Shown here in pieces: positions 46,488 to 51,103 of a stretch of DNA of 64,000 nt. The notes below the pieces were generated by a model. The model made no database searches and was not told where the DNA came from. It saw only the letters and a list, made by a program, of their open reading frames with translations. The stretch is from NCBI RefSeq assembly GCF_036507355.1, contig NZ_AP027877.1; one strand, given 5' to 3'. Numbering within the stretch: the first letter of the stretch is position 1; every line of letters begins with the position of its first letter. The DNA is from Escherichia coli (GTDB lineage Bacteria > Pseudomonadota > Gammaproteobacteria > Enterobacterales > Enterobacteriaceae). A program made the translations under genes and the position numbers.

Positions 46488-47405
46488 ATGCCACTCTCAA
46501 AGGTCTGGGCAGGTTCACTGGTTTTGTTGGCAGCCGTGAGCCTGCCGCTGCACGCGGCTTCCCCCGTTAAAGTCGGTTCAAAAATCGATACCGAAGGCGC
46601 GCTGCTCGGCAATATCATTTTGCAAGTACTGGAAAGCCACGGCGTACCGACGGTCAATAAAGTGCAACTCGGAACGACTCCTGTGGTGCGCGGGGCGATT
46701 ACTTCCGGTGAACTGGATATCTATCCGGAATATACCGGCAATGGCGCGTTTTTCTTTAAAGATGAAAACGATGCAGCGTGGAAAAACGCGCAGCAAGGTT
46801 ACGAGAAAGTCAAAAAACTCGATGCAGAGCAAAACAAGTTAATCTGGCTGACGCCCGCACCTGCAAATAACACCTGGACCATCGCCGTGCGTCAGGATGT
46901 GGCAGAGAAAAACAAACTCACTTCGCTTGCTGACCTGAGTCGTTATCTGAAAGAGGGCGGCACCTTCAAACTGGCAGCCTCGGCAGAGTTTATCGAACGC
47001 GCCGATGCGTTACCCGCGTTTGAAAAAGCCTACGACTTTAAACTCGATCAGGATCAGTTACTGTCACTGGCTGGCGGCGACACGGCGGTAACGATTAAAG
47101 CCGCTGCCCAGCAAACTTCTGGCGTTAATGCCGCAATGGCTTACGGCACTGACGGTCCGGTCGCGGCGCTGGGGCTGCAAACCTTAAGCGATCCGCAAGG
47201 CGTGCAACCTATCTACGCGCCTGCACCAGTGGTGCGTGAGTCGGTGTTGAAAGAGTATCCGCAAATGGCACAGTGGCTACAGCCAGTCTTCGCCAGCCTC
47301 GATGCAAAAACATTGCAGCAACTGAATGCCAGCATTGCAGTGGAAGGACTGGATGCCAAAAAAGTGGCTGCCGACTACCTGAAACAAAAAGGGTGGACGA
47401 AGTAA
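46488..47405 (+). CDS. osmF: periplasmic glycine betaine-binding protein of the YehZYXW ABC transporter
   Basis: 305-aa ORF with signal peptide; first gene of a four-gene ABC transporter operon. Confidence 0.9.
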   Translation: MPLSKVWAGSLVLLAAVSLPLHAASPVKVGSKIDTEGALLGNIILQVLESHGVPTVNKVQLGTTPVVRGAITSGELDIYPEYTGNGAFFFKDENDAAWKNAQQGYEKVKKLDAEQNKLIWLTPAPANNTWTIAVRQDVAEKNKLTSLADLSRYLKEGGTFKLAASAEFIERADALPAFEKAYDFKLDQDQLLSLAGGDTAVTIKAAAQQTSGVNAAMAYGTDGPVAALGLQTLSDPQGVQPIYAPAPVVRESVLKEYPQMAQWLQPVFASLDAKTLQQLNASIAVEGLDAKKVAADYLKQKGWTK

Positions 47406-47411
47406 TTTCCC

Positions 47412-48569
47412 GTGACTTATCTACGTATTAATCCTGTTCTGGCGCTGCTGCTGTTGCTGACGGCAATCGCAGCAGCGCTGCCGTTTATCAGCTACGCGCC
47501 TAATCGTTTAGTCTCGGGTGAAGGGCGACATCTCTGGCAGCTGTGGCCGCAAACGATTTGGATGCTGGTGGGCGTTGGTTGCGCCTGGCTGACAGCCTGT
47601 TTTATTCCCGCTAAAAAAGGCAGCATTTTTGCACTCATTCTGGCGCAATTCGTCTTCGTATTGCTGGTGTGGGGAGCAGGAAAGGCGGCGACCCAACTGG
47701 CGCAAAATGGCAGTGCGCTGGCGCGTACCAGCCTCGGCAGTGGTTTCTGGCTGGCCGCGGCGCTGGCATTGCTGGCCTGTAGTGATGCCATCCGCCGAAT
47801 CTCCACGCATCCGCTGTGGCGCTGGTTGTTGCATATGCAGATTGCCATTATACCGCTGTGGTTGCTGTACTCCGGCACGCTTAACGATCTCTCACTAATG
47901 AAAGAATACGCCAACCGTCAGGATGTGTTTGACGACGCACTGGCACAACATCTGACGTTGCTGTTTGGTGCGGTGCTGCCTGCGTTAGTGATTGGTGTGC
48001 CGTTGGGCATCTGGTGCTACTTTTCCACCGCGCGGCAGGGGGCGATTTTTTCTCTGCTCAATGTCATTCAGACCGTGCCTTCGGTGGCGCTCTTTGGCCT
48101 GCTGATTGCGCCGCTTGCCGGACTGGTTACGGCCTTTCCGTGGCTGGGGAAGTTCGGCATAGCAGGAACCGGAATGACACCCGCACTGATTGCGCTGGTG
48201 CTCTATGCCTTGCTGCCGCTGGTGCGCGGCGTGGTAGTAGGCTTGAACCAGATCCCGCGCGATGTGCTGGAGAGCGCCAGAGCGATGGGGATGAGCGGGG
48301 CGCAGCGATTCCTGCATGTTCAGTTACCGCTGGCGTTACCGGTATTTCTGCGCAGCCTGCGGGTGGTGATGGTGCAAACTGTAGGCATGGCGGTGATTGC
48401 GGCGTTAATCGGCGCAGGCGGTTTTGGTGCGCTGGTTTTCCAGGGGCTGCTAAGCAGCGCCATTGATTTAGTGTTGCTGGGGGTGATCCCGGTAATTGTT
48501 CTGGCGGTGCTGATCGATGCGCTGTTCGATTTACTTATCGCACTGCTGAAGGTGAAACGTAATGATTGA
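47412..48569 (+). CDS. yehY: ABC transporter permease
   Basis: 385-aa membrane ORF; GTG start; overlaps yehX. Confidence 0.9.
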
Positions 48570-49488
48570 ATTTAGCCATGTCAGCAAACTGTTCGGCGCA
48601 CAAAAAGCCGTTAACGATCTCAATCTCAATTTTCAGGAAGGGAGTTTTTCGGTGCTGATTGGCACATCTGGCTCCGGTAAATCCACCACCCTGAAAATGA
48701 TTAACCGCCTGGTGGAGCATGACAGCGGAGAGATCCGCTTTGCCGGAGAAGAAATTCGCTCGCTGCCAGTACTGGAGTTGCGCCGCCGGATGGGCTATGC
48801 CATTCAATCTATTGGCCTGTTCCCCCACTGGAGCGTGGCGCAAAATATCGCTACCGTGCCGCAATTACAAAAATGGTCGCGGGCGCGGATTGACGATCGT
48901 ATCGACGAATTAATGGCGCTACTGGGGCTGGAGGCGAATTTGCGTGAGCGTTATCCGCATCAGCTTTCCGGCGGTCAGCAGCAACGTGTGGGAGTGGCAC
49001 GCGCACTGGCTGCCGATCCGCAAGTCTTACTGATGGATGAACCCTTTGGCGCGCTGGACCCGGTAACGCGTGGCGCGTTGCAACAAGAGATGACGCGCAT
49101 TCACCGTTTGCTGGGGCGTACCATTGTGCTGGTCACTCATGATATTGATGAGGCGCTACGGCTGGCAGAACATCTGGTATTGATGGATCACGGTGAAGTG
49201 GTGCAGCAGGGGAATCCGCTGACGATGCTGACTCGTCCGGCGAATGATTTTGTCCGCCAGTTTTTTGGACGTAGTGAACTGGGTGTGCGCCTGCTTTCGT
49301 TACGTAGTGTGGCGGATTACGTGCGTCGCGAAGAACGGGCAGAAGGTGAGGCACTGGCAGAAGAGATGACGCTGCGCGATGCGCTCTCCCTGTTTGTCGC
49401 GCGGGGATGCGAGGTGCTGCCGGTGGTGAACACGCAGGGCCAGCCTAGCGGCACGCTGCATTTTCAGGATCTGCTGGTGGAGGCGTAA
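48562..49488 (+). CDS. yehX: ABC transporter ATP-binding protein with C-terminal CBS-like domain
   Basis: 308-aa ORF, Walker [13 protein letters not shown] signature LSGGQQQRV. Confidence 0.9.
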
Positions 49489-49492
49489 GCGT

Positions 49493-50224
49493 ATGAAGAT
49501 GTTGCGCGATCCGCTGTTCTGGCTCATTGCTCTTTTTGTGGCGCTGATTTTCTGGCTACCTTACAGCCAGCCGCTTTTTGCTGCCTTGTTCCCACAACTG
49601 CCACGACCCGTTTATCAGCAAGAAAGTTTTGCCGCTCTGGCACTGGCTCATTTCTGGCTGGTGGGAATTTCGAGTTTGTTTGCGGTGATCATTGGTACTG
49701 GTGCCGGAATTGCAGTCACTCGCCCGTGGGGCGCGGAATTTCGCCCACTGGTGGAAACTATTGCTGCCGTTGGACAGACTTTTCCGCCCGTCGCGGTGCT
49801 GGCGATCGCCGTTCCGGTGATCGGGTTTGGTCTGCAACCAGCGATTATCGCCTTGATCCTTTACGGTGTGCTGCCCGTCCTGCAGGCGACACTTGCCGGG
49901 CTGGGAGCGATTGATGCCAGCGTGACAGAAGTTGCGAAAGGTATGGGAATGAGTCGAGGTCAGCGACTGCGTAAGGTCGAGCTACCGCTGGCGGCTCCGG
50001 TGATTCTGGCGGGCGTGCGAACTTCGGTGATTATCAACATTGGTACGGCGACGATCGCCTCAACGGTAGGGGCCAGCACGCTGGGTACGCCCATCATCAT
50101 CGGGCTTAGCGGATTTAATACCGCGTATGTGATCCAGGGGGCGTTACTGGTGGCACTGGCGGCGATCATCGCAGACCGCCTGTTTGAAAGGCTGGTGCAG
50201 GCGCTTAGCCAGCACGCAAAATAA
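49493..50224 (+). CDS. yehW: ABC transporter permease
   Basis: 243-aa membrane ORF. Confidence 0.9.
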
Positions 50225-50312
50225 AGGTATAACCTGCGAGCATGACGCCACCAATTCCGCCTAACGCCATAAACAGGAACAGGGCGATGACCCCAATTTT
50301 AGCTATGCGCAT
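50205..50312 (-). CDS. yohO: small membrane protein (35 aa)
   Basis: Read from sequence: [35 protein letters not shown]; below track cutoff; 3' end overlaps the yehW 3' end by ~20 nt (convergent). Confidence 0.75.
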
Positions 50313-50371
50313 AATGCACTCCTTATGTTAACGAAAGGATTGTACAGTAAAGCGCATTTGTTAACGAATCA

Positions 50372-51103
50372 TTAAATGTCGAGTGGGAAAATATCATGGC
50401 CTTGTTCTTGCCAACTGGTGAGTTGCTGCTGTTGGGCGGAGGTTCGATTTTCACCGCACCACACCAGCAATGTACGGCCTTCGAATAGTTCAGGGCGTAG
50501 TTGATTGAGCGAATGGGCGAGGACATCAATGCGCCATCCTTGTTGACTGGCAATCCAGCCCTCCAGCCACAGACGGATGGTATCCTGAATATTCCAGCCA
50601 ACCACCAGCGCATCTTTACCCTGTTTTTTACGTGCCGAAGCCAGACAAATGGCGATGTAGTTGATCAGTACGCCGTCGAGGATCGCCAGCAGCGCCTGGA
50701 GAGTCGGTTGTTGGCACTGAAGCCGTCGGCGCAGAGGAATAAACAGATGTGTGGTGAGCGTCTGGGCGGGGTAATCCTGACCGCGCTCTTTGATCCACGT
50801 TCGCAGGCTATGCAGATTGCCGCTTTGCAGGTAGGTCAGTAATGTTTCTTGCTGATCGCGCCAGCCGTTCTGCACATCAACATTTTCATTACTGAGCAGC
50901 ATTTTAACTTTGCTGACCTGCACGCCGTTGTCGATCCAGCGTTTGATCTCGCGGATACGGTCAATATCGGCATCGTTGAACAGCCGATGACCGCCGTCTG
51001 TCCGTTGCGATTTCAGCAATCCGTAACGCCTCTGCCACGCGCGTAACGTGACAGGGTTAATATCACAAAGCAACGCCACTTCACCAATTGTGTAAAGCGC
51101 CAT
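50372..51103 (-). CDS. mlrA: MerR-family transcriptional regulator (curli/csgD activator)
   Basis: 243-aa ORF with N-terminal MerR HTH (MALYTIGEVALLCDINPVTLRAWQRRYGLL). Confidence 0.9.
   Translation of the reverse strand: MALYTIGEVALLCDINPVTLRAWQRRYGLLKSQRTDGGHRLFNDADIDRIREIKRWIDNGVQVSKVKMLLSNENVDVQNGWRDQQETLLTYLQSGNLHSLRTWIKERGQDYPAQTLTTHLFIPLRRRLQCQQPTLQALLAILDGVLINYIAICLASARKKQGKDALVVGWNIQDTIRLWLEGWIASQQGWRIDVLAHSLNQLRPELFEGRTLLVWCGENRTSAQQQQLTSWQEQGHDIFPLDI

Follow-up and report, generated by a model that had tools for sequence, protein, structure and literature searches.

The small membrane protein gene yohO shares its last codons with the convergent permease gene yehW: transcript overlap and conservation in the Enterobacteriaceae

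When the annotated ends of two convergent genes share coding sequence, it has to be asked whether the smaller of the two is a gene at all, where its transcript stops, and whether the overlap regulates either partner or is merely tolerated. These questions are raised by yohO and yehW in a 64,000-nucleotide stretch of Escherichia coli DNA (contig NZ_AP027877.1, assembly GCF_036507355.1), referred to here as the window. An earlier note on this DNA had described a hydrophobic 35-amino acid ORF on the minus strand, identified as YohO, that ends about 20 nt inside the last codons of yehW, and had spoken of an "osmoprotectant ABC operon". The ORF list and the sequence give an overlap of exactly 20 nt, and both the identification and the hydrophobic character are upheld by the profile match and hydropathy values given below. 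The operon does encode an ABC transporter, but the "osmoprotectant" label overstates existing knowledge. The features discussed are collected in Table 1.

Table 1. Features of the yohO-yehW locus, in window coordinates.
Feature	Position	Strand	Basis and remarks
osmF	46488-47405	+	ORF layout; name from K-12 annotation
yehY	47412-48569	+	ORF layout; name from K-12 annotation
yehX	48562-49488	+	ORF layout; name from K-12 annotation
yehW	49493-50224	+	Permease subunit, 243 aa; BPD_transp_1 match; last gene of osmF-yehY-yehX-yehW
Rho termination region, peak	49974 (K-12 2215995 +)	-	Antisense to yehW; PMC7815308, supplementary file 2
Primary yohO mRNA 3' end	50156 (K-12 2215813 +)	-	Term-seq; PMC7815308, supplementary file 1
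7-bp hairpin GGCGGUC-UGCGAU-GAUCGCC	50161-50180	-	-12.5 kcal/mol; yohO 3' UTR; no U tract
Stretch common to the yohO and yehW coding sequences	50205-50224	both	20 nt; read from sequence
yohO	50205-50312	-	35-aa ORF with ATG start; one predicted transmembrane helix; NCBIfam equivalog
yohO Shine-Dalgarno AAGGAG	50319-50324	-	6 nt before ATG; conserved
Second conserved GTTAACA	50326-50332	-	At predicted yohO transcript start
Inferred yohO -10 element	50339-50344	-	TACAAT here, TATAAT in most genera; spacer alignment
Conserved TTAACA	50359-50364	-	14 nt upstream of -10 element; spacer alignment
mlrA	50372-51103	-	Upstream of yohO, same strand; spacer 59 nt
btsS, btsR	from 51310	+	ORF layout; names from K-12 annotation

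The shared stretch contains both stop codons, the final five sense codons of each gene and two nucleotides of the next codon; it encodes the end of YohO (ILRAG and stop) on the minus strand and that of YehW (SQHAK and stop) on the plus strand. The K-12 annotation has the same geometry, with yohO at 2215657-2215764 on the plus strand and yehW at 2215745-2216476 on the minus strand. Over the 1611 nt compared, the window differs from K-12 at 20 positions, none of which lies within 49968-50378, so experimental coordinates from K-12 transfer exactly across that interval. Of 5426 complete E. coli genomes, 5425 contain a match of 95-99% identity to a 1.8-kb query around the locus, with at least 80% of the query present in 5402 of them, and the RefSeq labels under the match are yohO, yehW and mlrA among the matches listed.

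Several lines of evidence bear on whether yohO is translated. The protein matches NCBIfam NF010225, "protein YohO", with E = 8.8e-23 and 80.1 bits (cutoff 57), and its residues 1-35 align to model positions 1-35. It is identical to K-12 YohO and, with no difference from the family, is the type member of YohO/UPF0387 (NF010225, PF27791); a Pfam profile search gave no match for the window protein, and the orthologues carry the precomputed label PF27791, UPF0387_membrane. Orthologues are 35, 36 or 37 amino acids long and share the core motif MA(L/I)GGIGGVML(A/V/M)GY. Among 77 distinct orthologous sequences, codons 2-28 have 16, 10 and 25 variable sites at codon positions 1, 2 and 3, respectively, and the mean pN/pS is 0.30 in the yohO frame versus 0.45-2.5 in the five other frames; judged by these substitution patterns, purifying selection acts on the yohO frame. 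Mean Kyte-Doolittle hydropathy over 19 residues reaches 2.41 at most and GRAVY is 1.58, values consistent with a single transmembrane helix. A ribosome-binding site of the form (A/C/T)(A/G)GGAG is kept ahead of yohO in nearly all loci. YohO has also been detected by top-down mass spectrometry (PMC12529367), and a preprint (10.1101/2020.05.05.079178) reports Ribo-seq coverage of yohO, with Hemm 2008 as its source for a small protein bound to the membrane. Taken together, the NCBIfam match, the pN/pS values, the Shine-Dalgarno sequence, the hydropathy and the published mass spectrometry and Ribo-seq data establish yohO as a real protein-coding gene and not a chance ORF. That the gene might be an annotation artefact is very unlikely and was rejected in view of the profile match, purifying selection and detection by mass spectrometry.

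The spread of the arrangement was assessed with MlrA as the query and one genome per species, which gave 80 loci; the genera include Escherichia, Citrobacter, Salmonella, Enterobacter, Leclercia, Lelliottia, Kosakonia, Phytobacter, Buttiauxella, Cedecea, Atlantibacter and Franconibacter, among others, and 82 loci were scored after K-12 and the window had been added. The order mlrA, yohO, convergent yehW is found in all 80. The two coding sequences overlap in 81 of the 82, by 20 nt in 38 loci, 23 nt in four and 26 nt in 39. In the lone locus that could not be scored, from Leclercia adecarboxylata NCTC13032 (L031:3898-4620), yehW is disrupted, and one Citrobacter amalonaticus assembly (L009:3793-3900) has a frameshifted yohO without an ATG; these lesions may be assembly errors or true pseudogenes. 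Within the 20-nt class there are about six forms of the YohO tail and about 13 of the YehW tail, and the latter appears to take up most of the sequence change. The constant phase of the overlap (20, 23 or 26 nt) was considered as evidence of selection and rejected as such, since it follows automatically from two intact ORFs.

Outside the mlrA-bearing loci, yohO has other upstream neighbours: btsS, encoded on the opposite strand, in Klebsiella; either metG or a gene for an HTH regulator in Mangrovibacter; and a gene for a TonB-dependent receptor in Shimwellia blattae. In all three genera yohO overlaps yehW by 26 or 20 nt. Because the overlap persists where mlrA is not upstream, the conserved unit, as far as comparative genomics can tell, is yohO-yehW and not mlrA-yohO, and the arrangement is old and stable across the Enterobacteriaceae. 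Searched exhaustively, a set of 1.84 billion representative proteins contained 17 matches to YohO, all at least 60% identical and mostly sequencing-error variants. The family is limited to Enterobacteriaceae-type genomes and is always found beside the yehW operon, and yohO is single-copy and syntenic in all genomes examined. A search with YehW for outgroups that lack yohO gave identities of at least 78% among the matches listed.

The sequence between mlrA and yohO carries a second conserved feature. In an alignment of 67 distinct mlrA-yohO spacers, the pattern T-A-x-A-A-T of the proposed -10 element is present at 90% or more. The TTAACA upstream of it is too near for a standard -35 element and may bind a regulator or belong to a promoter of unusual form. 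The TTAACA cores are kept across genera, including those without mlrA, and the whole module of -10 element, TTAACA, GTTAACA and AAGGAG also stands upstream of yohO in Klebsiella, Shimwellia and Mangrovibacter. Since the -10 box is kept in the 67 spacers and travels with yohO past different upstream genes, a promoter belonging to yohO itself is probable, with transcription predicted to start near 50332 and a 5' UTR of about 20 nt. A consensus promoter scan did not call this promoter, the -35 region of which is poor, and gave a single match at chance level on the plus strand. The spacer contains no terminator-like structure, so transcripts of mlrA likely read through into yohO as well. The two TTAACA cores of the window lie in a 10-nt direct repeat, TTCGTTAACA, at 50325-50334 and 50357-50366 on the minus strand; the copies are 32 nt apart and flank the -10 element, and the pair may be a putative operator for a regulator. 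Klebsiella, without mlrA, still has AATTAATGTTTCATTAACA (L088:2890-3000), which in other genera runs across the stop codon of mlrA and the sequence ahead of the yohO promoter; either mlrA was deleted there or the AT-rich stretch is part of the yohO promoter.

A terminator scan with folding of the mlrA-yohO and yohO-yehW junctions on both strands found no intrinsic terminator. The sole candidate of the scan is a weak 6-bp hairpin with three GC pairs within yohO on the minus strand, and nothing was found on the plus strand past yehW. Folds around the overlap have z = -1.08 and -2.23 on the two strands relative to shuffles and are not convincingly more stable. Tail-to-tail genes with almost no intergenic space, as here, are the setting of bidirectional intrinsic terminators, but such a terminator is ruled out at this locus, where neither strand has a GC-rich hairpin with A/U tracts.

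Published mapping places a defined end on the yohO mRNA. The Term-seq 3' end at 50156 is listed as a primary end of yohO that is antisense to yehW (PMC7815308); it lies 49 nt beyond the yohO stop codon and 69 nt within the yehW coding sequence. The sequence column of that data set covers -50 to +10 about each 3' end, which was confirmed on two neighbouring terminator rows. Supplementary file 1, which compiles three growth conditions, names yohO three times and contains no 3' end for yehW mRNA in E. coli. Further along the same strand there is a bicyclomycin-sensitive Rho region (Rho score 5.64, p = 9e-16; PMC7815308), and these values refer to its peak, 182 nt downstream of the yohO 3' end, and not to the 3' end itself. 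The RNA past the yohO stop codon has more C than G, with C/G of 1.4-2.7.

The mapped end falls 5 nt after the 7-bp hairpin and leaves the tail GCCAG. This hairpin is 25-44 nt past the yohO stop codon, within the yehW codons for AAIIADR. Most of 80 distinct sequences retain equivalent pairing, with a mean of 5.6 of 7 pairs versus 4.7 of 7 in a codon-resampled null, a contrast that relatedness among the sequences inflates. The stability of the hairpin does not exceed that of shuffled sequence (z = -0.21), and its pairing is largely forced by the conserved amino acids of YehW. According to Dar and Sorek 2018 (PMC6061677), Rho-dependent transcripts end just past stable stem-loops that lack a U-rich tail, and the yohO 3' end fits this rule. 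The yohO end resembles such ends in the short distance from a GC-rich hairpin, the missing U tract and the bicyclomycin-sensitive region downstream, and differs in that the hairpin and the Rho-loading region lie inside a convergent coding sequence.

The earlier note had further suggested convergent overlapping transcription of the two genes, and this is borne out by the Term-seq end 69 nt inside yehW, by a published list of excludons and by transcript segments from Klebsiella. Two full-length mRNAs of these genes are bound to be complementary over the 20 nt common to their coding sequences, which makes non-overlapping transcripts impossible. Given the mapped end at 50156, full-length yohO mRNA is in every case complementary to no fewer than the final 69 nt of yehW coding sequence. 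ExcludonFinder places yohO-yehW among 165 convergent excludons present in at least 50% of 58 MG1655 RNA-seq samples (PMC12288877). Its criterion is overlap of coverage only, for which any pair of genes with overlapping coding sequences qualifies automatically.

In Klebsiella pneumoniae MGH 78578, Figure 1C of a transcriptome study (PMC3536570) displays an 800-nt transcript antisense to yehW at 2810932-2811731 on the plus strand, which covers 92.4% of yehW. A putative 37-amino acid ORF at 2810962-2811075 begins 30 nt past the start of this segment and matches Kvar_1501, a 37-amino acid hypothetical protein of Klebsiella variicola, while the sense yehWXYZ segment (2810882-2814821) spans the whole antisense segment (PMC3536570). 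The ORF and Kvar_1501 are taken here to be YohO, and the "antisense RNA" is most simply the yohO mRNA with long read-through, since the Klebsiella yohO locus retrieved in this study agrees with the ORF in length and position and with the 26-nt overlap that these imply. Transcript overlap of yohO and yehW is thus established by published data. The antisense interference between operon and small protein that the note saw as a possible consequence is a reasonable but tentative suggestion.

The reading that best accounts for these results, with a probability of roughly 0.75, is that yohO is a genuine, autonomously transcribed and efficiently translated gene that lies tail to tail with yehW and is ended by Rho inside it, so that the overlap is obligatory. 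Transcription of yohO would start from the predicted promoter in the 59-nt spacer, with a contribution from mlrA read-through. With neither an intrinsic terminator nor space for one between the genes, polymerase leaving yohO continues antisense into the end of yehW, and Rho stops it within a few hundred nucleotides. The stable yohO mRNA ends at 50156; exonucleases would trim the RNA back to the hairpin, a protective structure that doubles as YehW coding sequence. From the other side, the terminator-less, sigma-S-dependent osmF-yehYXW transcript must reach at least the yehW stop codon inside yohO, and it probably crosses yohO and its promoter, as the Klebsiella data suggest at the resolution of microarrays. 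Any effect of this sense/antisense overlap on either gene is estimated to be modest and dependent on growth conditions.

The expression programmes of the neighbours are relevant here. In a 2023 time-course study, osmF, yehW and mlrA are dependent on RpoS (sigma-S) (PMC10654073). Stationary-phase transcription converges on yohO from both sides. By contrast, the cultures in which the yohO 3' end was found include exponential-phase LB and minimal medium (PMC7815308).

If the overlap is more than tolerated, the pair could be a true excludon, a selected device in which yohO transcription or mlrA read-through lowers the output of YehW or of osmF-yehYXW and induction of the operon silences yohO, whether because the polymerases collide, the yohO promoter is occluded or RNase III cuts the paired RNAs. 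Like the convergent excludons of ExcludonFinder (Sanmartin et al., NAR 2025), yohO and yehW are neighbours on opposite strands, tail to tail, and their transcripts overlap in vivo, as the shared coding sequence and the published data show; the pair is on the published E. coli list and overlapping RNAs have been seen in two species. The overlap has also persisted in 81 of 82 scored loci and in three more genera, even though a single stop codon placed earlier in the variable YehW tail would suffice to abolish it, and the Klebsiella yehW sense segment passes the yohO start, which makes promoter occlusion geometrically possible. The depth of this conservation could mean that the overlap is functional rather than merely tolerated.

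Against this, excludons have been described as overlaps of untranslated regions, whereas here the coding sequences themselves overlap and the transcript overlap is unavoidable, so that a listing by coverage was automatic. The hallmark of an excludon is mutually exclusive expression with RNase III processing, but yohO-yehW is classed by transcript overlap only. Capture of double-stranded RNA with p19 failed to validate convergent pairs generally (PMC12288877), Rho shortens antisense transcription in E. coli, and the constant relative frame is a logical result of two intact ORFs. A true excludon is therefore possible but must be regarded as tentative. A larger version of the idea is doubtful: a module selected across the family, in which the overlap links YohO inversely to the betaine transporter, transcription of yohO shortens or destabilises the final cistron of the operon, sigma-S induction occludes the yohO promoter, and YohO may act on the transporter or on a related membrane state. 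If true, it would be a conserved excludon built from overlapping coding sequences rather than from untranslated regions.

Small membrane proteins that modulate transporters include KdpF with KdpABC, AcrZ with AcrB and MgtS with MgtA. YohO resembles these in size class, in its single predicted transmembrane helix and in tight linkage to a transporter operon, which suggests that it might serve the YehZYXW ABC transporter as an accessory subunit or modulate it, with the overlap mainly serving to keep the genes co-inherited. The narrow family, always beside the yehW operon in the representative search, fits this suggestion, as does the way yohO stays with yehW regardless of whether mlrA, btsS, metG or a gene for an HTH regulator or TonB-dependent receptor is upstream. 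Linkage by itself is weak evidence, however, since genes that overlap do not readily come apart. Unlike KdpF, AcrZ and MgtS, YohO is encoded convergently and not within the operon, an orientation unusual for subunits of one complex, and the expression programmes look different, with the yohO 3' end present in exponential LB and minimal medium versus a sigma-S-dependent operon.

One lineage is also known to keep yohO after loss of the transporter. In the genome representing Escherichia sp. MOD1-EC7003 (L002:3883-4266), approximately the first 30 osmF codons are fused to the last 30 yehW codons by a deletion that takes most of osmF, all of yehY and yehX, and 213 yehW codons, with bglX next in order as in E. 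coli. The deletion leaves yohO intact, encoding a protein identical to that of the window, together with about 70 nt downstream including the hairpin. As a single genome it counts weakly against strict dependence of YohO on the transporter. On balance, a role for YohO as a transporter partner is considered quite unlikely.

A type I toxin-antitoxin-like system, in which a toxic peptide is restrained by an overlapping antisense RNA, is extremely improbable and was rejected: YohO is a small hydrophobic peptide with a single helix and an antisense transcript does cross the 3' end of its gene, but the partner is the mRNA of a conserved permease and not a dedicated small RNA, a search of Rfam at the locus found no known RNA and only a meaningless weak match, yohO is single-copy and syntenic with a strong ribosome-binding site, the protein is detected in normal cultures, and a first-round screen recorded growth of the ASKA yohO clone under IPTG induction (PMC10299036).

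As a discovery the locus is of small importance: databases or papers already contain the yohO gene, its overlap with yehW, the mapped 3' end of its mRNA and the classification of the pair as an excludon. New are the depth to which the overlap is conserved, the linkage of yohO to yehW rather than to mlrA, the yohO promoter module kept across genera, the reading of the Klebsiella antisense RNA as yohO mRNA, and the deletion lineage. The pair is a clean, conserved test case for whether convergent overlapping transcripts regulate or are merely tolerated, as it combines an unavoidable overlap, a strongly expressed small protein and a sigma-S-controlled transporter operon as the partner. By the comparative results, the function of YohO should be sought with yehW and not with the curli regulator mlrA.

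A few further observations concern the neighbourhood. In a genomic SELEX study of minor sigma factors, a peak of intensity 4.0 lies inside yehW, between yohO and yehX, at old K-12 coordinate 2214150, which is roughly position 49750 of the window (PMC5493296). In Shigella flexneri, an RNA-seq study of anaerobiosis and FNR gives yohO a log2 fold change of -2.96 in its table of chromosomal genes (PMC4229854); from the layout of the other table in that paper, this is taken to be the anaerobic versus the aerobic wild type. The yeh operon genes are not mentioned in its main text. Within mlrA, a terminator-like hairpin with a U-rich tail begins at codon 2 (51099-51077, minus strand), and Term-seq reports an ORF-internal 3' end at K-12 2214904 (+), or window position 51065, 38 nt into mlrA (PMC7815308). 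Translating ribosomes would melt this hairpin, which could therefore be a translation-coupled premature terminator for the curli regulator gene.
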